A stretch of DNA of 64,000 bases from Escherichia coli. GTDB lineage: Bacteria > Pseudomonadota > Gammaproteobacteria > Enterobacterales > Enterobacteriaceae. Positions 22,884 to 32,171 of the stretch are shown here, piece after piece. The stretch is from assembly GCF_024700885.2 (NCBI RefSeq), contig NZ_CP117016.1; one strand, given 5' to 3'. Both the position numbers and the translations under genes were made by a program. Below the pieces are notes generated by a model. It saw only the letters and a list, made by a program, of their open reading frames with translations, searched no databases and was not told where the DNA came from. Numbering within the stretch: position 1 is the stretch's first letter; each line of letters begins with the position of its first letter.

Positions 22884-22973
22884 TTGCCTCCCCCCCGTTG
22901 ATGGGTAAAATAGCCGCAATTTTTCGTTTTCAACAAGCGCGGCGCGATGCCGCTTACTCAAGAAGAAAGAATT

Positions 22974-23048
22974 ATGACGTTGTCTCCTTATTTGCAAGAG
23001 GTGGCGAAGCGCCGCACTTTTGCCATTATTTCTCACCCCAATAATTAA
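22974..23048 (+). pseudogene. prfC: 5' remnant of prfC (peptide chain release factor 3) interrupted by the prophage; attL region
   Basis: ATG at 22974 encodes [22 protein letters not shown], the RF3 N-terminus, then diverges inside the GTPase P-loop to NN-stop at 23046-23048. Confidence 0.75.
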
Positions 23049-23201
23049 GCCAAAATTAAAGCTCTTTTACTCTTTCAAAATCCTTTCAGTTAATTGAGGT
23101 TGAGCCATATAACTCATTTAAATACATTTAGTTATGTGGCTTCTTTAATTGAAAATTCTTTCATGTAACTTTAAATCGATCTGCTTGCTTTCATCAAAAA
23201 T

Positions 23202-23260
23202 CTGTACATGTGCTTGTACATAATGTACAAAACAGCAGAGGTGTTTTTTTATTTGTACAA
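23202..23260. promoter_or_regulatory. cluster of TGTACA-type palindromic sites upstream of int
   Basis: Perfect 17-bp palindrome ttgtacat-a-atgtacaa (23214-23230) plus flanking tgtacat and ttgtacaa half-sites within 60 bp, ending 9 bp before the int RBS. Confidence 0.5.
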
Positions 23261-23268
23261 GGTGAGTA

Positions 23269-24486
23269 ATGGCGCTGTCTGATGCGTGGTTGCGTTCAGT
23301 CGTTGGAAAGGAACGTGATAAGGTTTTGGTTAAATCCGATCGTGATGGTCTGTCTGTCAGAGTATCACCGAAAGGTCGCGTAGTGTTCCAATATCGTTAT
23401 CAATGGGCAGGGAAAGGTGAGCGCCTTGATATCGGAACTTACCCGGCAACTGGATTAAAAGAGGCCAGAGAAGAAGTTATCCGTCTCCGTGGTGAACTCG
23501 AGTCAAACCGCAATCCACGATTAGTCAGGCAGGCTGAAAAACGAAAAGCTACTGAAGCCATGACGGTAGAGTCTGTGATCCGTGCCTGGTATGAAGCATA
23601 TTGTGTAAAAAATAAAAAAGGTTCTGAACAGATACTCCGCTCGTTTGAGCTGCACCTGTTCTCTAAAATCGGGAATATCCCTCACGATGCAGCTACATTG
23701 CATGATTGGTTAGAAGTCCTGGAGCCTCTTAGCACTAAGACTCCAGCAATAGCAGACCGATTGCTAATTAACGCAAAGCAGGCCCATGTCTGGGCGTATA
23801 AGAGAAAGCTCATTGAAACTCGCCCACTGTCGGATATCACGGGTAAAGATATGGATATCCGTAAAGGTCAGAAGAAACGGTTTCTGACACATGATGAAAT
23901 TAAAATCCTTTATGCTGCGATCGATGGTTCTCGAATGGTTCCTAAATACCGGGCCTTCATTAAACTATTGCTGCATTTTGGCTGCCGTAGTTCAGAGCTA
24001 ATTACCGCCAGGGTGGACGATTTTGATTTCATTAATAAAGTATGGACTGTACCACCAGAACGACATAAGACTGGGGAGATAACAGGCGAACCGCTAAAGC
24101 GGCCCATTATTGAACCGGTTGAAGAGCTTATAAAGTACGCTATTTCTATGAACAATGGTTCCGATATGCTTTTTACTAAGGAAGGAAGCAGGGAACCCGT
24201 TGGTCGGACATCATTGCAGTCGCTGCCTTACAATTTAATGCAGTACGCATGGCGGCGTTTGGGGTATCAATTCCCTCATTGGTCTCTTCATGATTTGAGG
24301 CGAACAGCACGAACAAACTTTTCTGATCTTACTGCGCCTCATATTGCAGAAATAATGCTAGGTCATAAACTGCCAGGGGTATGGCAGGTTTATGACAAGA
24401 GCGATTATTTAGATGAACAGCGTAAAGCTTACCAGGCATGGTGGGAGAGAGTTGAATCGATAGTTACTTGTACTTGTTCAGACTAG
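23269..24486 (+). CDS. int: tyrosine site-specific integrase
   Basis: 405-aa ORF; C-terminal catalytic region with HDLRRTARTN and LGHKLPGVWQVYD (conserved R, H-x-x-R and Tyr); GGTGAG RBS. Confidence 0.9.
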   Translation: MALSDAWLRSVVGKERDKVLVKSDRDGLSVRVSPKGRVVFQYRYQWAGKGERLDIGTYPATGLKEAREEVIRLRGELESNRNPRLVRQAEKRKATEAMTVESVIRAWYEAYCVKNKKGSEQILRSFELHLFSKIGNIPHDAATLHDWLEVLEPLSTKTPAIADRLLINAKQAHVWAYKRKLIETRPLSDITGKDMDIRKGQKKRFLTHDEIKILYAAIDGSRMVPKYRAFIKLLLHFGCRSSELITARVDDFDFINKVWTVPPERHKTGEITGEPLKRPIIEPVEELIKYAISMNNGSDMLFTKEGSREPVGRTSLQSLPYNLMQYAWRRLGYQFPHWSLHDLRRTARTNFSDLTAPHIAEIMLGHKLPGVWQVYDKSDYLDEQRKAYQAWWERVESIVTCTCSD

Positions 24487-24619
24487 AACTGACATTTTGC
24501 ATAGGCAGAACGCAATTATGCATATTGCGGTATAATCCCCTTCTTAAAACTGTAAGAACTGCTTGCTAATCCTTGCAGTTTTTGATTATAACATTTTTAT
24601 TTGTTTATTAGGATTTTTG

Positions 24620-26752
24620 ATGGAACTGTTACAGGAACACGGGGCGATACTTAAAGTTGTAATCATGCCTACTACTGGGGAACAAACCATAATCCAAGGT
24701 TTCGATACTGGCCTCCTCAACCCAGAGATATCCAACATTCTTTTTTTATTGGCCAAAACACCAAAAGAAATTAGTGAGATTTTTGTCAATGAAAATGATA
24801 ACTTTCAGCCTACTCTAAGCGGGCTAAATCCTATTTTTTTAATATCTAAAGAAAATCTTGAAAAAATACCAGATATTTATCAAACGCCATTTTGCTTAAT
24901 TTTTTGTGCTAAAGAAGATTTTTCGTATGTTTGTGCTTTAAAAAAACATTTTGCTATACCACCTATAATTTGTTGCAATTCTAAACGCGCTGATCTACCA
25001 CTTAATAAGATTAATAGTATATACTCATTTGATAAGGTGCTCTTCTCTCGGTTGAAATTCATTGAGGATAAAATAAGAAAAAATCACAGTGAAAAGAAAA
25101 TATCAACGAAGTTGAAGCGAAGAGGGGCTTTATTTAATAAATCACCTTGGAGATCGACGCTTAACAATTCAACACTACCCAATGAGTTGTTAATTGAATC
25201 ACTTGGCTATATGCTATCTCCACCAAAAAGAATTAAAGATGGTAGTAGCAAAAGAGAGTTTATAGAAATAATACTTCATAGCGTTGATGCATACACCGAA
25301 TGTTTAAAGGAATTAGATATACCACTTCCAACGGAAGTCTTACTTTTTGCTCCGGGTATGCACTCTTTTTTATATGATAAAAATAATGACTTTTATGAGT
25401 TAATAACGGAAAATTTATCCACAATTGAGAAAAAATTCCTTATTGATGGAGTGTTGAGGAATCCAGGCTATTCTGGAATTAGACTTGATATAAATTCAGA
25501 TAGAAAAGAACTTTTTAAAAGTCCTGCTTTCCGTTACCTCACCTCACTAAGACGAGCTGAAATGCGATTAACAACAGCTGCGATTACTTTATTTAGCATA
25601 AATAAAAAAATCCCAGCAATAAGATTGCCAAATGCAATAAATCATTACTCCAATTATTTGAAAAATCTTGAAGATCTTGCAACTTCTTCTGGGATAAATA
25701 GTGAAGCATTCATCACTAAATCTAAAGCATTCAATACTGTTATTCGAAGAGCCCTTGGTTGCAAGTTGAGAACATATATAAGTAAAAACTATAGCGATTT
25801 GTCCTTTGTTTGTGATGTACCATTGGATTGGATTAGGTTTAATAACATACCTATAATGTTCAGTCATGAGATATCAAGAATAAATGCTACGCCTGGTAAC
25901 GTTCTTCTACAGAGCGCCTCTGCTTTTCCGCGCGTTTTAGTAAAAGCATCTGAGTTGAGAAAGGTTTTAGTTATACGTTCTTTTGAGCCTGATGATCACT
26001 TAAAGTTCATATTAGAGAACGCAATTGAGATATTTAAAAAACAGATGCCAGATCTTGATTGCGAGATTATTGATGTTAGATCGAAAGCTGAGTTTATTGA
26101 TGCTCTAAATCAATATCAAGGTCATATTCTTGTTATGGATTGTCATGGAAACCATGATGGCAATGGGAGTCATGGATGGTTAATAATAGGTGAGGATAAA
26201 GTGGACACTTGGAGTTTGAGAAAAATAGCAAGAATTCCTCCTATCGTAATTCTGAGTGCATGTTTAACATCTGCCCTAAGTGGTTCTCATGCCTCTGTTG
26301 CTAATGGCTTCGTTATAAGTGGTGCATTAAGTGTCATCGGAACATTACTGCCTGTAAATGCGATAGACTCTGCTGTTTTTGTAAGTCGGTTGATCTACCG
26401 GTTTTACGAGTTTCCTTCGACGCTATCTACAAATTTTACACATGTTAATGTAAGGCTTTTTCTTTCTGTTTTTCTTAGGATGTCCTATGCAAGCGATTTA
26501 ATAAGAGGATTTTTATCTGAAGATTTGATACCGAATAATTCATGGAAGAAAGATGCAGTTGATATTAACATGTATATAAACATGCTTCACCATGATTGGT
26601 ATGATTATGTAATTAACAAATTGACGATGTTAACGGGGCTCACGAAAAAAGATGTACTTGATTTTATCGATAGAAAATTATTCATAACCGAAACTATGTG
26701 CTATAGCCAAATTGGATTTCCAGATGCAATCACAATTAGTCTTAAAGATTGA
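24620..26752 (+). CDS. large AT-rich cargo protein with C-terminal caspase-like (CHAT-type) His/Cys protease signature; candidate defence protein
   Basis: ATG at 24620 (AGGA 6 nt upstream) gives ~710 aa. C-terminal region HILVMDCHGNHDGNGSHGWLIIGE...IPPIVILSACLTSALSGSH...GALSVIGTLLPVNAIDSAVFVSRLIYRFY has the His (HG) then Cys (SAC) spacing of clan-CD peptidases. N-terminal ~500 aa unassigned. Confidence 0.7.
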   Translation: MELLQEHGAILKVVIMPTTGEQTIIQGFDTGLLNPEISNILFLLAKTPKEISEIFVNENDNFQPTLSGLNPIFLISKENLEKIPDIYQTPFCLIFCAKEDFSYVCALKKHFAIPPIICCNSKRADLPLNKINSIYSFDKVLFSRLKFIEDKIRKNHSEKKISTKLKRRGALFNKSPWRSTLNNSTLPNELLIESLGYMLSPPKRIKDGSSKREFIEIILHSVDAYTECLKELDIPLPTEVLLFAPGMHSFLYDKNNDFYELITENLSTIEKKFLIDGVLRNPGYSGIRLDINSDRKELFKSPAFRYLTSLRRAEMRLTTAAITLFSINKKIPAIRLPNAINHYSNYLKNLEDLATSSGINSEAFITKSKAFNTVIRRALGCKLRTYISKNYSDLSFVCDVPLDWIRFNNIPIMFSHEISRINATPGNVLLQSASAFPRVLVKASELRKVLVIRSFEPDDHLKFILENAIEIFKKQMPDLDCEIIDVRSKAEFIDALNQYQGHILVMDCHGNHDGNGSHGWLIIGEDKVDTWSLRKIARIPPIVILSACLTSALSGSHASVANGFVISGALSVIGTLLPVNAIDSAVFVSRLIYRFYEFPSTLSTNFTHVNVRLFLSVFLRMSYASDLIRGFLSEDLIPNNSWKKDAVDINMYINMLHHDWYDYVINKLTMLTGLTKKDVLDFIDRKLFITETMCYSQIGFPDAITISLKD

Positions 26753-26859
26753 CAACTGTATGTAATAAATATGGCATACTTCCGGCACAGAGCGAATATA
26801 ACAGATCAGGTTTAGCTCTGTGCCATAGGTGTACCAACTCTCATCTGAGCTAATGCTCG

Positions 26860-27054
26860 TTACTCAATAACTCCCGCAAATTTGTAAATCTTGCGTGATG
26901 CCCATTTATTTGGGCATGATTTAATATCAGGATCTGGAAAGTCTGGCCTGTATTTCTGGCCAGTTCTCCTGTTTACGCTGTTCCAGCGAAGAACTGTCGA
27001 TACTGATACTCCACAGAAGTTGGCGACTTGTTTAGTTGTCATTAAGTTGTTCAT
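26860..27054 (-). CDS. small HTH DNA-binding protein, putative excisionase / early regulator
   Basis: 64-aa ORF (MNNLMTTKQVANFCGVSVSTVLRWN...) with strong GGAGGT RBS; start overlaps the upstream stop (TAATG). Confidence 0.5.
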   Translation of the reverse strand: MNNLMTTKQVANFCGVSVSTVLRWNSVNRRTGQKYRPDFPDPDIKSCPNKWASRKIYKFAGVIE

Positions 27055-27674
27055 TACTTTACCTCCTGCGGCGGCTCCGGTAGCGGCATCCAGTGGGTTA
27101 CTTTCGATGCCGGTTCTTCCACATCGTCAGTAACTGCCCACCATTTGTTTCTCGACCAATCGTAATACCCTTCGAAGGTATCGCACTCAGTCCAGCCGTA
27201 AGACTTCCCCCAACACCAAACATACTGTTTATCGTTCGGCATTCGCTCACTACAGCTTATCCAACCATCCGGAGTTACCGGAGAGTTGCCCGACAGCTCG
27301 TTCAACTTGTAAGTCTGGCTTACAGGTTTGGCACCATGAAGCATGGCGGCGCGGCAGGCGTTCCAGCCTTCATCAAAGCCGACTATGCCATTATTTAAAG
27401 ACGGAAGAGCATCCGGCACCACCGACACTGGCTGAGCCATATATAGCGGCTGAACATACCAGCCCTTTGATAACCAACTGTCAGCAATGTTTTTGCTCCT
27501 GGTTATTGCCGGAATACCTAAGCCATTGTCTGAATGAAGCCACGCCACCGGCTCTGCTTCCAGTGATGCCAGAGCAATTTCATAAGCAAGGCGCTCAACA
27601 TTGTCTCGCACGTCTAGGCTGCCGATTCGTTCTTTGATTTCTTTAATCTGTTCCTTATCGGTGTAAGTGGTCAT
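27054..27674 (-). CDS. phage protein with DUF551-like C-terminus
   Basis: 206-aa ORF ending ...KVTHWMPLPEPPQEVK, a motif I recognise from prophage DUF551 proteins. Confidence 0.65.
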   Translation of the reverse strand: MTTYTDKEQIKEIKERIGSLDVRDNVERLAYEIALASLEAEPVAWLHSDNGLGIPAITRSKNIADSWLSKGWYVQPLYMAQPVSVVPDALPSLNNGIVGFDEGWNACRAAMLHGAKPVSQTYKLNELSGNSPVTPDGWISCSERMPNDKQYVWCWGKSYGWTECDTFEGYYDWSRNKWWAVTDDVEEPASKVTHWMPLPEPPQEVK

Positions 27675-28030
27675 TATGCTCCAGCCTCCGGTGCTTTTGG
27701 CATTACTGCCCAGTGAGTGATATTAATATTTTCAAGGTCCCCGATCTGAAATGTCCACTGCCATTCTCCGGTTTCTTTTTGTCCCCAGGTGTACCAGAGA
27801 GAACGCCAGCCAATCAGCCAGCCTTCTCCGTTAGCATCAAATAACAGAACACTTTCATTTGCTGGTGGCAGTTCAACTGATACTGGTATTACTTTGTTTT
27901 CCTGTGCTGCACATTTAGCTTCAAGCGCATCGAATTTACGCTCCAGGTATTTAGCATCCGTTTCATTCACTTTCAGGTCTCGTGGTACACATCTCCCGTG
28001 AAGAAACCCTTCCATTTCGAAAACATTCAT
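27674..28030 (-). CDS. phage hypothetical protein (YfdS-like size and position)
   Basis: ~118-aa ORF; ATG at 28030 overlaps the upstream stop (ATGA coupling); the similar C-terminal ITHWAVMPKAP motif suggests relation to the neighbouring DUF551 gene. Confidence 0.55.
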   Translation of the reverse strand: MNVFEMEGFLHGRCVPRDLKVNETDAKYLERKFDALEAKCAAQENKVIPVSVELPPANESVLLFDANGEGWLIGWRSLWYTWGQKETGEWQWTFQIGDLENINITHWAVMPKAPEAGA

Positions 28031-28563
28031 GCGCATTTGCGTAACTCCGATAACTCGTTAAAACGTTCCATAAACATCCCGTAGGCATGGCCCGGAGCCA
28101 GTGGAATAACTTTGAACATCTCTGTTGCCGGGATACCTTCCAGTACTGGCCAGAAAGAGCCATCATCAAGCCCGAGGTCGCGGCGTTCAGTTGCCAGCAT
28201 GATGAGATCGGCATATTTCACAGGCGTGCTCATAACCGGGGGTAACCCGAATTTCTCACGGATTACGGCGTCTATTTTTTCTTCCATCCGTTTATAGTCA
28301 GGAAGAAGGCGTTTCAGTGGCGCGGGGATGTCCTGACAATACGCTTCTGTTGCATCATGCATTAACGCTTCAAAAGCAAACTCCTCCGGAACCAGTTTGC
28401 TGCAAAGCACCGCATGTTGGGCGACGCTGTAGAAGTGTGAAAGATGACCGGCAAAGCGACAGATATTTGAAAGGGAAACTGCGATATCGTTAATCACGAT
28501 GTCGTCTTTATTTATCCTGTCATAATAAAAATGCTTCCCGGAAAAAGTTTTAATAAATGACAT
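28027..28563 (-). CDS. HD-domain phosphohydrolase (YfdR-like 5'-deoxynucleotidase)
   Basis: ATG at 28563 preceded by GGAGAA; 178 aa; HD motif residues in RFAGHLSHFYSVAQHAV...LMHDATEAY. Confidence 0.75.
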   Translation of the reverse strand: MSFIKTFSGKHFYYDRINKDDIVINDIAVSLSNICRFAGHLSHFYSVAQHAVLCSKLVPEEFAFEALMHDATEAYCQDIPAPLKRLLPDYKRMEEKIDAVIREKFGLPPVMSTPVKYADLIMLATERRDLGLDDGSFWPVLEGIPATEMFKVIPLAPGHAYGMFMERFNELSELRKCA

Positions 28564-28657
28564 TTTGTTCTCCACTTTATATGCGCTGCACCGCGCTGAA
28601 TTTTGGTTAAAGAAAACCCTCGCCATCAGGCGATTATTGAGTTAATTACGTTTCCAT

Positions 28658-28679
28658 AAATGCCCCCGCAGGGGCATTT
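28658..28679. other. perfect 10-bp-stem hairpin between early-left genes
   Basis: aaatgccccc-gc-aggggcattt; it shares the 13-nt string tccataaatgccc with a site at 30300-30312. Confidence 0.35.
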
Positions 28680-28691
28680 GCAGTAATGAAA

Positions 28692-29516
28692 TCAGGCGGT
28701 GAAAGTACCAATAAAGGTTTCTACTTTGCTGTCTTTGAATTTTTCAACAAGCAGATCACGAAATTCGTTAGCCATTTCTTCCTGCACTGCTTCCAGCTGA
28801 ATAATGCGCAGAACCAGTACAGGGCGATCACCAGTGATAATGCTGAGGCGTAATTTAAACGGACGTTCTTTCAGGCCTTCAAACGGAACGCATTTAAACT
28901 CAAATGCTACTGGCATAATGTCTTTGGTTTTCGCTTCGACAGACTCCATCAGAGAGCGTTTGCCGCTGAAGTCATTGTCTTCAAAATCAGCGGTCTGGTT
29001 TGCTTCAATCGTGATTTTACGGACCGCCGCAGCCGCTTTTGTTGCCTGAATGGCGTCACCATTAGCATCAAAGCCCACAAGGTAGTCGGCCCAGTCTTCA
29101 ATCCATTCTGCCAGTGACTTCTGGGAGTTACGCTCGCCGTTAACAGACAACAGGGCAGAGAACGGTGCTGTCTTTTTCAGTTTGAGAGTGGCGGTGTTAT
29201 CTGCGTGACCTGGTTCATCAATAGTACCCAGGTTAAGCACACTGACGGCTCGCATATTATCAGCATCGATAAAGCAGCGGGTGCCTTCATCTGCAAGATC
29301 TTTAGAATAACGGGTAAAGTCATCGATGCTGGCAGTGGAAAGCGCACCACGGAAACGGAAGCGATTTAAATTAAATTTTTCCAGATCATGAATGCGGAAA
29401 TTCTCAGGCAATGCCACAGCATCGGCACCAATCTTACTGATAATTTCATTAACACCCTGAGCAGAAATAAGGGCATGGATTTGATTAATTGCGGTTGCGT
29501 CTAAGTTCTGAGACAT
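28692..29516 (-). CDS. phage protein, YfdQ-like (DUF2303-type)
   Basis: 274-aa ORF ([21 protein letters not shown]...), same length and order as CPS-53 yfdQ next to the HD-domain gene. Confidence 0.65.
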
Positions 29517-29581
29517 AATAAGTCCTCACTATATAAAGATATTCAGTGATGAGATAAATAATCAGTTTATTAAAAACGATA

Positions 29582-29944
29582 TTAACGACCTGCTGCGCGG
29601 AGTTTTCCGTCAGGTTCACCGGCAAGAGTCAGTAATTGTCCCTGGTCTTCCTGCAGAATAGTCAGGCGACCACCGCGATTGACATACATCGGCGTTTCGG
29701 TGGTGTCTTCTTCGGAAATTTTCCCGCGGTTAGTCGGGCGAACATATGAGAGTTTGTGTTTGATTTTTACACGGTTCTCATCAAACGGTTCGATTTCCAG
29801 GTTGAGCGAGACCTTACCTTTGGTTTTCGTGTTCATCACACCGGAAGCGACTTCACTGAGAACAGCGCCGATTTTGGTTTCAAATACGCCGCCGTCCAGC
29901 TCCCCGATAAATGCCTGCACATCAGTACTGCGTTCGCTAGCCAT
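29582..29944 (-). CDS. phage hypothetical protein (YfdP-like), first gene of the early-left operon
   Basis: ATG at 29944 preceded by GAGGAG gives 120 aa (MASERSTDVQAFIGELDGGVFETK...); the longer listed ORF 29582..30175 is an upstream extension. Confidence 0.6.
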   Translation of the reverse strand: MASERSTDVQAFIGELDGGVFETKIGAVLSEVASGVMNTKTKGKVSLNLEIEPFDENRVKIKHKLSYVRPTNRGKISEEDTTETPMYVNRGGRLTILQEDQGQLLTLAGEPDGKLRAAGR

Positions 29945-29992
29945 TTTGCTGCTCCTCATCATATCGACCCTGCAAGGTCGGTTGGTTTCTCC

Positions 29993-30127
29993 ACAAAACA
30001 GAGAAGAACACCTGCGGTGGCAGCCGCCCGGATGGATTGGGTTATGAGCCCGTCGTCCGGTGATGCCCTTCTCTGTTTTGTAAAAAGAGCGGTACCAGCC
30101 GGAAGCAAGTGTACAAACTGGTACCGC
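29993..30127 (-). other. two tandem stem-loops in the pL-proximal leader (candidate structured RNA element)
   Basis: SL-I has a 14-bp perfect stem, acaaaacagagaag (29993-30006) pairing with cttctctgttttgt (30068-30081). SL-II has a 10-bp perfect stem, gcggtaccag (30089-30098) pairing with ctggtaccgc (30118-30127). Neither is followed by a U-run on either strand. Confidence 0.35.
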
Positions 30128-30574
30128 CAAAGCAGTGGCTGTTGTGGTGGGGTTGTCACTCAGGCGTATGGTCAACCTGACAATCCGGTGTCCTCAACGG
30201 GGAAAGAGTAACCCCGCCATACTTACCGCCGCGCCATTTCGCGGATTACCACAACGCTGAGAGCACTTAGCCAGTTACGGCACCACACTTTGTCGCGGTT
30301 CCATAAATGCCCTCATCGTTGCACCCTGGTCTCTTCCCAGGCGTCAAACCGGATCGCCACGCTGGTTAGGCGTCTTATCAGCATCATCATTGACTTGCAC
30401 ATTCCGGCTACCTGGTTTGTTTGCCCGAGCAAGGAGTGGATTGTCCCCTTTAACGTCCCCAGACCGCTAACGACGCATGTGCCATACGCCGTGTTACAAC
30501 CAAATTTAGTTTAATCTTGCCTGTGTTATGTTTCTTTTAGATACATTATGTATCTCAAGGGTACATTGTCAAGT

Positions 30575-30599
30575 ATAAAAAAACCTGCCGAAGCAGGTT
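30575..30599 (-). terminator. rho-independent terminator of the cI transcript
   Basis: aacctgc-cgaa-gcaggtt hairpin followed on the minus strand by a U-run, just downstream of the cI stop. Confidence 0.65.
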
Positions 30600-30610
30600 A
30601 TAAATATTGA

Positions 30611-31285
30611 TTAGGCCTTTATTTTGTATCTTCTTGGTTTTCCCGAGAAAATCACTGTACCAATTATAGAGCAATTACCGTTAATCTTAATGTAAGGCTC
30701 AGGCCAGTTTGGGTTTAATGCTTTGAGATAACGCTGTGTTCCATCTTCTATCAATCGCTTGAAGGTGGTTTCGCCTGTATCGTGCATCAATGCAATAACG
30801 TCGTCACCGTGGCAGGCAGGGACTTCGGGATCAACAAAAATCATGTCTCCAGGGCGGTACTCATCAATCATTGAATCACCAATCACCCGCAAGATATAAG
30901 TCATTTCGCCACAGGGTACAGGGCAGGGGTAAGTTTCTGCTGTGCTCAAATCAACCTCAGAATAGCCAACTTCTTTCCATGCTCCGGCCTGTACCCATGA
31001 TATGACAGGGACTAACGTTATTTGTTTGTTAGTGATTGAAACATCAGGTTTTTTTGTGATGTTCGTGGTCTGGTGTTCTTGATCAAGCCATCCGACAGGC
31101 AGGTCGAAACATTTTTCGATGTGCCGCGCCATGCTGTCACCGATATTTTTAGTAGCACCATCTCCCATAAACCTGCTGGTCTGGGTTGGCTCGCGATCAA
31201 TCATGGTGGCAAAGGAAGAATTCCCGCCAACACCATCTCTCAGTTTTCTGGCGTTAGACCGCCGGATGTCATGGATTGTTTTCAT
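30611..31285 (-). CDS. cI: CI-type prophage repressor (HTH plus S24 LexA-like autopeptidase domain)
   Basis: 224-aa ORF; N-terminal HTH region and C-terminal S24 features (GDSM...; Lys in FKRL); divergent from cro. Confidence 0.85.
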   Translation of the reverse strand: MKTIHDIRRSNARKLRDGVGGNSSFATMIDREPTQTSRFMGDGATKNIGDSMARHIEKCFDLPVGWLDQEHQTTNITKKPDVSITNKQITLVPVISWVQAGAWKEVGYSEVDLSTAETYPCPVPCGEMTYILRVIGDSMIDEYRPGDMIFVDPEVPACHGDDVIALMHDTGETTFKRLIEDGTQRYLKALNPNWPEPYIKINGNCSIIGTVIFSGKPRRYKIKA

Positions 31286-31375
31286 AACGAAATTAAAACC
31301 TTTGTACCGATAAGGTACAAGTATCTTGAAGGTTCATTTCAATCATGTAATATGTATATCGGAGGTACATATTGT
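31286..31375. promoter_or_regulatory. cI / cro divergent promoter-operator region (pRM / pR)
   Basis: Palindrome ttgtacc-gataa-ggtacaa (31302-31320) plus ATGTA/TACAT half-sites around 31345-31375 that overlap the cro RBS. Confidence 0.6.
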
Positions 31376-31576
31376 ATGAAAGCGTATTGGGACTCTTTAA
31401 CCAAAGAACAGCAGGGCGAGTTGGCCGGAAAAGTTGGCTCAACACCTGGCTACTTACGGCTGGTTTTCAATGGTTATAAAAAAGCCAGTTTTGTGCTGGC
31501 GAAAAAACTTGAGCAATGCACGTCAGGTGCAATTACGAAATCTGACTTAAGACCGGATATCTATCCGAAAGATTAA
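31376..31576 (+). CDS. cro: Cro-like small repressor
   Basis: 66-aa ORF from ATG 31376 (GGAGG 10 nt upstream), divergent from cI; the longer listed ORF 31073..31576 is an upstream extension into the operator region. Confidence 0.7.
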   Translation: MKAYWDSLTKEQQGELAGKVGSTPGYLRLVFNGYKKASFVLAKKLEQCTSGAITKSDLRPDIYPKD

Positions 31577-31607
31577 CAGAACACCTTCAATTTTTAACCA
31601 CAGAACG

Positions 31608-32171
31608 ATGAGGCTAACCGTGGGTAAGTATCACTGGAAAGTAGAAAAACAGCCTGAGTGGTACGTGAAAGCTGTCAGAAAAACTATCGCAGCGTTGCCG
31701 GGTGGTTACGCTGAAGCAGCTGACTGGCTGGATGTAACAGAGAACGCATTATTTAACCGCCTTCGTGCCGATGGCGATCAGATTTTCCCGCTGGGATGGG
31801 CAATGGTTTTACAGCGCGCGGCTGGCACTCACTACATTGCGGATGCTGTCGCACAGTCTGCTGGTGGGGTGTTCGTATCGCTTCCTGAAATTGAGGAAGT
31901 AGAGAACGCCGATATAAACCAGCGCCTGCTGGAAGTCATCGAACAGATCGGGAATTACTCAAAGCAGATTCGTTCGGCAATCGAAGATGGGGTCGTGGAG
32001 CCACACGAGCAGACAGCAATTAATGATGAGTTGTATCTGTCAATTTCGAAGCTCCAGGAGCATGCAGCACTGGTCTACAAAATCTTTTGCGCTCCAGAAA
32101 AGAGTGACGCCCGCGAGTGTGCAGCTCCGGGCGTCGTGGCGTTTTGTGTCTGTGGAGAAACTAACGCATGA
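31608..32171 (+). CDS. CII-like / YdaT-like early regulatory protein
   Basis: 187-aa ORF in the cII position immediately after cro; family assignment is by position and weak resemblance only. Confidence 0.45.
   Translation: MRLTVGKYHWKVEKQPEWYVKAVRKTIAALPGGYAEAADWLDVTENALFNRLRADGDQIFPLGWAMVLQRAAGTHYIADAVAQSAGGVFVSLPEIEEVENADINQRLLEVIEQIGNYSKQIRSAIEDGVVEPHEQTAINDELYLSISKLQEHAALVYKIFCAPEKSDARECAAPGVVAFCVCGETNA

Follow-up and report, generated by a model that had tools for sequence, protein, structure and literature searches.

Two independent families of binding sites that resemble each other probably serve the attachment region and the immunity region of a lambdoid prophage of Escherichia coli, a reading to which we assign a probability of about 0.8. 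As judged from the sequence, the TGTACA boxes in front of the integrase gene would be arm sites of a prfC-targeting integrase, and the pL sites, together with those in the cI-cro interval, would be operators of an SfV-type CI repressor. The GTAC core common to both families would be a coincidence, and the operators at pL and cI-cro are presumably used by Cro as well. We infer this pairing of proteins with sites from the architecture of the region, the conservation of the sites, their co-inheritance with neighbouring genes and the protein domains found. The initial annotation had placed the palindromes at int, pL and cI-cro in one family; this holds for pL and cI-cro, which share an operator family, but the int boxes are separate.

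Prophage and attachment site

The window, that is, the whole stretch of 64,000 nucleotides that was analysed, contains a lambdoid prophage whose insertion site is the 5' end of prfC. Phage Ayreon is 100% identical to positions 23016–31700, and the value for phage cdtI is 98.6%; outside this queried segment of 8.7 kb the prophage differs from Ayreon. The attL core is a 20-bp sequence (TTTGCCATTATTTCTCACCC, 23019–23038, without strand) common to the phage attP and host prfC, and a 5' fragment of host prfC lies to its left; intact prfC genes align with the window as far as about 23038, and phage records align from 23016. The core was defined by comparing attL, attP and attR sequences. The prophage's own attR lies beyond the 64-kb window, and the data on the P arm come from Ayreon, one Stx1a prophage and E. 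coli WP2-S18-ESBL-08. The attL junction is found in 699 of 5,426 complete E. coli genomes (about 13%). The prophage family takes in cdtI as well as Stx1a- and Stx2c-converting phages.

The int gene (23269–24486, plus strand) starts 231 nt past the att core, is transcribed away from attL and encodes a heterobivalent tyrosine integrase of 405 aa targeting prfC (PHROGs phrog_1, integrase), in which Pfam recognises Arm-DNA-bind_3 at residues 3–90 (E = 4.9e-16), Phage_int_M and Phage_integrase. Between int and xis lies AT-rich cargo (GC 36%), bovA (24620–26752, plus strand), the "CHAT gene" of the Borvo anti-phage defence system (PADLOC BovA, E = 1.2e-241; Pfam CHAT domain, E = 9e-6), which was found in 7 of 80 related int loci. 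The mechanical open reading frame of bovA begins at a TTG at 24563. The excisionase gene xis (26860–27054, minus strand; 64 aa; phrog_1553, E = 1.9e-35) is the final gene of the leftward pL operon and is convergent with int and bovA. Since int lies on the strand opposite to the pL operon, pL read-through could never express it, and the choice between repressor control and dependence on antitermination that had been raised for int does not arise. A consensus sigma-70 promoter scan detected none upstream of int, and a consensus scan between int and bovA found neither promoter nor terminator.

TGTACA boxes on both arms of attP

The palindrome TTGTACAT-A-ATGTACAA reported upstream of int is present at 23214–23230, TGTACA recurs at 23203 and 23254, and the P' arm in all carries four boxes, 10–66 nt upstream of the int ATG. 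Box 1 (cTGTACAt, 23202–23209, without strand) makes a TGTACA-N6-TGTACATAA dyad with box 2 (TTGTACATAAT, 23214–23224, plus strand); box 2 supplies the left half of that palindrome, includes a -10-like hexamer, CATAAT, and recurs as an exact 11-mer on the P arm. Box 3 (TTGTACATTAT, 23220–23230, minus strand) is the right half of the palindrome and is confined to a subgroup of E. coli, Salmonella and Pantoea. Box 4 (TTGTACAAGGT, 23253–23263, plus strand) abuts the int ribosome-binding site, and its placement directly before this site is the same in all homologous modules. In Ayreon, these four boxes are joined by five on the P arm, with the 20-bp core between the two groups; together they span from about -230 to +228 relative to the core centre, occur in both orientations and follow a consensus of approximately TTGTACATWWT.

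The palindromes are non-random. The total of TGTACA in the window does not exceed expectation (10 observed versus 11.5 expected), but the copies are extremely clustered, four of the ten lying inside 57 bp. In the Ayreon genome, nine of 14 copies fall within 464 bp around the att core, and at least nine copies in a 470-bp span were reached in none of 200,000 random placements, the highest value being five. The 8-mer TTGTACAT occurs six times in the genome, each time in one of the two attP arms. The repeat families of attP all include the box, for example a 35-nt direct repeat (80% identical) present on both arms, and the search for repeats in attP found no repeated motif other than the box. In a genome whose attL is identical to that of the window, attR carries four boxes.

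Directionality factors such as lambda Xis and TorI typically use few direct repeats on one arm, whereas a set of nine, spread over the two arms in either orientation, suits arm sites of an integrase. Moreover, Int, with its arm-binding domain, requires arm sites, and attP offers no other repeated motif for them; the box is not known to match any host-factor consensus. That the boxes are sites of Xis or of a host architectural protein, and not of the integrase arm domain, is thus improbable, even though xis homologues adjoin int in related modules, co-inheritance cannot separate Int from Xis, and in KplE1 TorI binds attL DNA where the int promoter lies (PMC2951348).

The 35-nt box module lies in front of int on the P' arm and, on the P arm, in front of the prfC 5' end supplied by the phage. 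This arrangement bears on two further readings of the boxes. In the first, which is tentative and rather unlikely, the arm box TGTACATAAT would double as a -10 element (CATAAT, as in pL), and occupancy of the arms by Int and Xis would control int and host prfC. If this were true, the release-factor-3 gene of the lysogen would be under the control of arm occupancy, its native promoter having been displaced by the prophage. In the second, the P' dyad TGTACA-N6-TGTACA would be the target of a CII-like activator at a lambda pI-like, establishment-specific int promoter. Lambda CII sites are TTGC-N6-TTGC, and the direct repeats of the P' arm resemble them in flanking a weak -35 region; a gene for a CII-like activator (phrog_101) is present at 31608–32171, and the failure of the scan to find a sigma-70 consensus promoter upstream of int would also fit. 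However, the dyad lies on the P arm as well, upstream of the phage-borne prfC 5' end, the cro-cII region, where the establishment promoter of cI is expected, contains no TGTACA, and the boxes persist in distant int modules; activation by CII is very improbable.

Conservation of the boxes with the integrase

The module-swapping of lambdoid phages provides a clean computational test of site ownership. In the Stx1a phage LC727891, Int is 97.5% and the repressor 32% identical; in Stx2c_EH0430 the values are 97.3% and, for the C-terminal part of the repressor only, 35%. Both phages retain all four P' boxes in flanks that have diverged by about 10%, and their operators are unrelated to those of the window, with a TGATAAAT type and a TGTAGGATATCCTACA type. 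Likewise, four boxes are present in 30 of 30 IMG/VR loci that cover the DNA upstream of int, with or without an SfV-type CI. Homologues of Int, all at prfC, are found in Salmonella, Pantoea and Xenorhabdus (85%, 84% and 65% identity), each with four boxes, and in Serratia (61%, three boxes), Erwinia (55%, one box and a variant) and Vibrio (52%, three boxes), and in these modules the intergenic DNA around the boxes is otherwise diverged. The TGTACA-N6-TGTACATAA dyad occurs upstream of int in all fetched modules that include upstream DNA, Erwinia excepted. The int palindrome is absent from the Xenorhabdus, Serratia and Vibrio modules, so the conserved unit is the box and not a dyad-symmetric operator. 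It was also found that xis is co-inherited with int, as the boxes are, and the assignment of the boxes to Int over Xis therefore rests on architecture, namely both arms and orientations, nine copies and the arm-binding domain.

The initial annotation had favoured the view that the int palindrome is an extra CI operator, with int (and bovA) repressed by CI in the lysogen, and had mentioned arm-type sites as the alternative. The presence of boxes on both arms and their co-inheritance with the integrase favour the latter. An extra CI operator would not be expected on the other attP arm, nor to stay with int beside unrelated repressors and operators and in other genera; in SfV, whose CI is 99.6% identical, the integrase is a different one, expressed from pL, and its int region has no boxes. 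Control of int by CI is very improbable in view of these observations and of the comparison with the CI-type operators themselves, whose half-sites are separated by N5, a spacing never found between the int boxes, which are N6 and N3 apart.

Probable repressor operators at pL and in the cI-cro interval

The other two palindromes described earlier, agatacat-t-atgtatct at 30539–30555 and ttgtacc-gataa-ggtacaa at 31302–31320, were also found as reported, together with the ATGTA/TACAT repeats over the cro ribosome-binding site (31347–31376). The candidate operator is a 17-bp element, TGTAYC-N5-GGTACA, which occurs twice at pL and three times in the cI-cro interval. The pL palindrome had been taken as a site in itself, but it consists of the abutting arms of two adjacent 17-bp operators and the pL -10 hexamer. 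The pL promoter (30545–30572, minus strand) has TTGACA, a 16-nt spacer and CATAAT, which matches 11 of 12 consensus positions, and a promoter is annotated at this position in the Ayreon record. OL-a (TGTTTC-TTTTA-GATACA, 30529–30545, without strand) sits immediately after the pL -10 and provides, with its right arm, the left half of the palindrome; better copies of it exist in Serratia and Edwardsiella relatives. OL-b (TGTATC-TCAAG-GGTACA, 30549–30565, without strand) fills the spacer between the pL -35 and -10, with its left arm forming the right half of the palindrome; it matches the operator pattern exactly and is conserved in eight of nine repressor lineages, the Serratia marcescens locus being without an OL region.

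On the other side of the cI terminator hairpin (30582–30599, minus strand; annotated in the Ayreon and SfV records) lies cI (30611–31285, minus strand), which encodes a repressor of 224 aa of the S24 peptidase/LexA-like type with 99.6% identity to SfV CI. OR-distal (TGTACC-GATAA-GGTACA, 31303–31319, without strand), the third palindrome of the initial annotation, is situated between the start of cI and the pR -35, matches the pattern exactly on both strands and overlies the likely cI maintenance promoter; its arms are conserved and its spacer is variable in nine of nine lineages. A weaker site, OR-middle (AGTATC-TTGAA-GGTTCA, 31320–31336, without strand), covers the pR -35 (TTGAAG, 31326–31331) and is recognisable in eight of nine lineages, the Serratia marcescens locus being the exception; in Rosenbergiella it is symmetric (GTTCC-N5-GGAAC). 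The putative pR promoter (31326–31353, plus strand) was read from the sequence as TTGAAG, a 16-nt spacer and TAATAT; it falls under the consensus threshold of the promoter scan, and in four relatives it reads TTGAAG or TTGCAG, a 16-nt spacer and CATAAT. OR-proximal (TGTATA-TCGGA-GGTACA, 31353–31369, without strand) is an exact pattern match that covers the pR start and the cro ribosome-binding site and is conserved in nine of nine lineages. It is followed by cro (31376–31576, plus strand), whose product of 66 aa is 100% identical to SfV Cro.

An operator matrix trained solely on sites from Hafnia and Edwardsiella phages placed five of its six best matches in the 44.7-kb Ayreon genome within OL and OR, with OL-b, OR-distal, OR-proximal, OL-a and OR-middle at ranks 1, 2, 3, 4 and 6, respectively. 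The exact operator pattern occurs at three sites in the window and at none in 100 shuffles. OL-a and OR-middle have two mismatches each, and two-mismatch matches in the window are near chance (13 versus 9.6 expected); it is position and conservation that argue for these two as probable operators. Across nine CI lineages of 57–100% identity, the operator arms are constrained and the N5 spacers vary. A scan of IMG/VR with a three-sequence CI alignment yielded only loci with a 100% identical CI and was used for natural variants of the operators.

Two other interpretations of these sites were rejected. When the pL palindrome GGTACAT-T-ATGTAYC was taken as the operator unit, the resulting matrix found pL, a weak site at the cro start and then noise, and the palindrome is absent in Providencia and Rosenbergiella, which retain the N5 operators. 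An RNA hairpin or terminator at 31302–31320, which had been flagged by a scan, was discarded since the arms are invariant, without co-variation, and the motif recurs at pL and pR.

The resemblance that suggested a CI operator at int is nevertheless real in several respects. The exact pattern TACATNATGTA occurs at two sites in the 64 kb, one at int and one at pL, and with at most one mismatch there are five matches versus 1.26 expected, a number reached by two of 100 shuffles; the int palindrome and the pL junction motif have GTACAT-N-ATGTAC (13 bp) in common, the int palindrome ranks fifth or sixth in the genome with the pL-palindrome matrix, and the commonest variant of OR-proximal tolerates TGTACA as an operator arm. 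However, chance sites in coding regions score equally high under the palindrome model, which does not describe the operator unit, and the best score of the operator model in attP is 3.1, at rank 34. The int half-sites also have T where the OL half-sites examined have G, the left half in Edwardsiella excepted. On account of the shared 13 bp and the rank with the junction matrix, CI may bind weakly across families at the int palindrome.

Proposed control of integration and excision

According to the preferred reading, the N-terminal arm-binding domain of Int would dock on the boxes, by which the recombination complex would be assembled. The int gene would be transcribed alone, on the strand opposite to pL, and excision would be triggered by xis, which closes the pL operon and is thereby under repressor control. 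Of the candidate CI operators, two flank the pL -10; of the three in the cI-cro region, one is upstream of pR at the likely cI promoter, the next coincides with the pR -35, and the last spans the start of pR together with the ribosome-binding site of cro. As the P' boxes lie within 70 nt of the int start, with box 4 abutting the ribosome-binding site, they would most likely also make int negatively self-regulated, to judge from their position.

Both arm sites and operators are ordinary, known kinds of site, and current concepts are unchanged. The analysis maps two candidate control systems of a prophage family common in E. coli and provides a predicted set of arm sites for prfC-targeting integrases from E. 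coli to Vibrio, which may include SXT-like elements, and a proposed operator consensus for the SfV-type immunity region, formerly annotated just as a "putative operator region". It also illustrates that look-alike short palindromes in AT-rich control regions of phages can serve different proteins.

Comparison with known systems

It has been reported that in the IntS/TorI system of KplE1 (CPS-53) and the Int/Vis system of P4 the int promoter overlaps attL and the integrase is self-regulated (PMC2951348). As in these elements, int adjoins attL here and is transcribed alone and away from it, the stretch from the core to the start codon of int holds the putative arm-type boxes, and the gene for the directionality factor is at another place (last in the pL operon), which uncouples the transcription of int and xis; the integrase is P4-like and has an arm-binding N-terminal domain. 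Unlike in KplE1 and P4, the target is the 5' end of the protein-coding prfC and not a tRNA gene, the box TTGTACATWWT is specific to the prfC-integrase family, the defence gene bovA sits between int and xis, and the int promoter and its self-regulation are predicted from position. In comparison with elements of the SXT family, the element here is a lambdoid phage and not a conjugative one; the homologue at prfC in Vibrio, with an Int of 52% identity, also has the TGTACA-N6-TGTACATAA dyad.

The lambda integrase, which is heterobivalent, contacts the arm sites P1, P2 and P'1–P'3 through its N-terminal domain. The attP described here resembles that of lambda in that several short asymmetric boxes in mixed orientation, some of them in close tandem, flank a short core, but it is larger and has a different consensus; furthermore, lambda int depends on pL and pI for its expression and not on a promoter inside attL. 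The immunity region likewise resembles the OR/OL systems of lambda, with divergent cI and cro, an S24-peptidase repressor and several 17-bp dyad operators over pR, pL and the likely cI promoter, and in the SfV GenBank record the DNA between cI and cro is labelled a putative operator region; to our knowledge, individual SfV-type operators had not been defined before. The differences from lambda are that the TGTAYC-N5-GGTACA consensus is specific to SfV-type immunity, that the operator centres are spaced by 17 and 33 bp in OR and by 20 bp in OL, that OR-proximal covers the cro ribosome-binding site and that two operators are recognised at pL.

Prophage Organization at prfC

Between 23016 and 31700, the window matches Escherichia phage Ayreon (MF807953) at 100% identity and the cdt-converting phage cdtI at 98.6%, and similarity to intact prfC stops at about 23038. 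From these matches, the element is a lambdoid prophage integrated within prfC's 5' end, with attL as its left end; the same prfC junction was found in 699 of 5,426 complete E. coli genomes. Ayreon and this prophage are not identical throughout (window 42214–64000), and TGTACA positions in the tail genes differ: the copy at window 63887 lacks an Ayreon counterpart, and that at Ayreon 15296 lacks one in the window. The attR of the prophage lies beyond the window end.

The plus strand carries int (23269–24486; Arm-DNA-bind_3, Phage_int_M, and Phage_integrase domains), the 729-aa CHAT-domain gene bovA (24563–26752, probable ATG at 24620), cro (31376–31576; 100% identity to SfV Cro), and a CII-like activator gene (31608–32171; phrog_101), while the minus strand carries cI (30611–31285; 99.6% identity to SfV CI) and xis (26860–27054), the final gene of the leftward early (pL) operon. 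PADLOC identifies the bovA product as BovA (E 1.2e-241), a component of the anti-phage defence system Borvo, and Pfam recognises a CHAT domain in it (E 9e-6); since the gene has a GC content of 36% and occurs in 7 of 80 related int modules, it is exchangeable cargo sitting between int and xis. In the int–bovA gap (24500–24540), a perfect TATAAT (24531–24536) is preceded by the inverted repeat GCAAT-N7-ATTGC (24512–24528), and a consensus scan detected no full promoter or terminator there. In E. coli WP2-S18-ESBL-08, the prophage end near attR (sequence L181, 8071–10293) has a DinI-like gene as well as a 'TIR domain-containing anti-phage reverse transcriptase', which would make a second cargo for defence at the element's opposite end.

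TGTACA Boxes on the attP Arms

The initial annotation located palindromes at int (23214–23230), pL (30539–30555), and cI-cro (31302–31320), and all three lie precisely at these coordinates. The pattern TACATNATGTA occurs exactly only at the int and pL sites of the window, and with at most one mismatch it gives 5 matches versus 1.26 expected. TGTACA is not enriched overall (10 window copies versus 11.5 expected); 4 of the 10 are packed into a 57-bp stretch upstream of int, on the P' arm (the attP side next to int).

When the uninterrupted attP was taken from the Ayreon record, five further TGTACA boxes were found upstream of the core, on the P arm. The Ayreon genome (44.7 kb) has 14 copies in all, nine of them inside 464 bp around the core, and random placement reached nine within a 470-bp span in 0 of 200,000 trials. 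The boxes stand at −230, −184, −115, −87, −75, +177, +189, +198, and +228 from the core centre in mixed orientations, with an oriented consensus of about TTGTACATWWT. All six Ayreon copies of TTGTACAT fall in the two arms, every attP repeat reported by a repeat finder involves the TGTACA box, and a 35-nt direct repeat, TGTACA-N6-TGTACATAAT..., is shared by P and P' at 80% identity. E. coli WP2-S18-ESBL-08, with an attL identical to that of the window, has four boxes in its attR, upstream of the prfC start that the phage supplies.

Module exchange between lambdoid phages was used as a natural test of which protein owns the boxes. The Stx1a phage LC727891 has an Int of 97.5% identity and a repressor of only 32%, and Stx2c_EH0430 has an Int of 97.3% and a repressor of 35% in the C-terminal part only; their operators, of the TGATAAAT and TGTAGGATATCCTACA types, are not GTACAT-related. 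Both retain 4/4 P' boxes in flanks about 10% different, and the Stx1a attR retains four P boxes. Four boxes are present in each of the 30 IMG/VR loci that extend upstream of int, whether they carry an SfV-type CI or lack it. SfV shows the converse: its CI and Cro are the same, yet its pL operon contains a lambda-type int-xis pair. More distant Int homologues, all at prfC, come from Salmonella (85%), Pantoea (84%), Xenorhabdus (65%), Serratia (61%), Erwinia (55%), and Vibrio (52%), with 4, 4, 4, 3, 1 (plus a variant), and 3 boxes upstream of int, respectively, in otherwise unalignable DNA. In all six, the last box is immediately upstream of the ribosome-binding site, and all except Erwinia have the dyad TGTACA-N6-TGTACATAA some 65 nt ahead of the int start codon. 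Only the E. coli, Salmonella, and Pantoea subgroup has the int palindrome itself, formed by box 2 overlapping inverted box 3; what is conserved is therefore the single box, fitting monomeric arm binding rather than a dyad operator. The presence of boxes on both attP arms and their retention alongside the integrase support the annotation's fallback proposal that the int-proximal copies are arm-type sites.

Predicted Operators at pL and between cI and cro

The pL promoter, read on the minus strand, is a strong match to consensus (TTGACA, 16-nt spacer, CATAAT; 30572 to 30545). Control regions of CI homologues were compared from SfV (99.6%), 80 IMG/VR loci (100%), Hafnia phage yong2 with its 80% Enterobacterales cluster, Serratia (76%), Edwardsiella EPP-1 (74%), Serratia marcescens (67%), Providencia (60%), and Rosenbergiella (57%). 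A 17-bp unit, TGTAYC-N5-GGTACA, recurs with conserved arms and five freely variable middle bases; for instance, the OR-distal spacers across homologues are GATAA, GTTAA, GCGTT, AAATT, AGTAG, AAAAA, TTCAA, and TAAAT.

An operator weight matrix trained on Hafnia and Edwardsiella sites only was scanned over the whole Ayreon genome (background mean −24.7, SD 8.1), and five of the six best matches fall in OL and OR. At pL, OL-b (scored over 30548–30566; 22.1) fills the promoter spacer and OL-a (30528–30546; 14.3) follows the −10. Between cI and cro, OR-distal (31302–31320; 22.0) overlies the likely maintenance promoter, next to where cI starts, OR-middle (31319–31337; 13.3) covers the pR −35, and OR-proximal (31352–31370; 18.9) extends over the start of pR and the ribosome-binding site of cro. 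The exact operator pattern occurs at three window sites versus none in 100 shuffles. The pL and OR sites are thus predicted to form a genuine operator family, as had been proposed, with the N5 17-bp unit in place of the proposed palindrome.

The pL palindrome AGATACAT-T-ATGTATCT was rejected as the operator unit: from the operator positions, it is a composite of the OL-a right arm, a 3-bp gap (part of the −10 hexamer), and the OL-b left arm. It is a minority variant of the common form GGGTACATTATGTATCT, and in the Providencia and Rosenbergiella relatives it is gone while the N5 operators are still present.

The attribution of all three palindromes to one repressor is not supported for int, where boxes are spaced by N6 and N3, never N5, and are kept with heterologous repressors. 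Weak cross-binding of CI at the int palindrome is very improbable: the best operator-model score within attP is 3.1 (rank 34), and even under a matrix built from the pL palindrome the int site ranks only fifth or sixth, equal to chance sites within genes. The int palindrome has T in both halves, where the OL half-sites examined have G, except the Edwardsiella left half. The GTACA(T) common to both families is best read as coincidence between modules joined by recombination.

Outside the window, the operator-like CTGAACCGTGTTGATACAT (Ayreon 23053–23071; operator-model score 13.9, the fifth-best genome-wide) closely precedes a small ORF located between attP and the tail-fibre gene, and could be a chance match or mark a repressor-controlled moron. 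The pL leader (window 30290–30540), a stretch of about 100–350 nt between the pL start and the first leftward gene, is wholly unlike that of SfV in both the window and Ayreon, with SfV homology beginning at about 30515. Annotated terminators stand between pL and xis. A published SfIV analysis reported N, cII, and cIII homologues to be absent from this phage group.

Expression of prfC and int

The phage supplies a replacement prfC 5' end (Ayreon P arm, L001 1420–1525; WP2-S18-ESBL-08 attR, L181 7850–8050), and RefSeq lists the hybrid prfC as an intact gene. As the DNA upstream of it is phage-derived, with four integrase boxes, host release factor 3 would be expressed from phage-derived signals in lysogens. 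The displaced native 5' fragment (ATGACGTTGTCTCCTTATTTGCAAGAGG..., 22969–23038) keeps its own promoter region at attL, facing the prophage and int, and read-through from it into attL and int is conceivable.

The int gene adjoins attL and points away from it; its strand is the one opposite pL, and xis is the last pL gene. This layout matches that of KplE1 IntS and P4 Int, whose int promoter overlaps attL and is repressed by Int, with the directionality factor (PMC2951348). Because a consensus promoter scan upstream of int detected none, we only infer such self-regulation here. The specific arm-box and operator motifs appear to be without earlier description in the literature consulted, and the TGTACA arm boxes and N5 operators are each ordinary representatives of well-known kinds.
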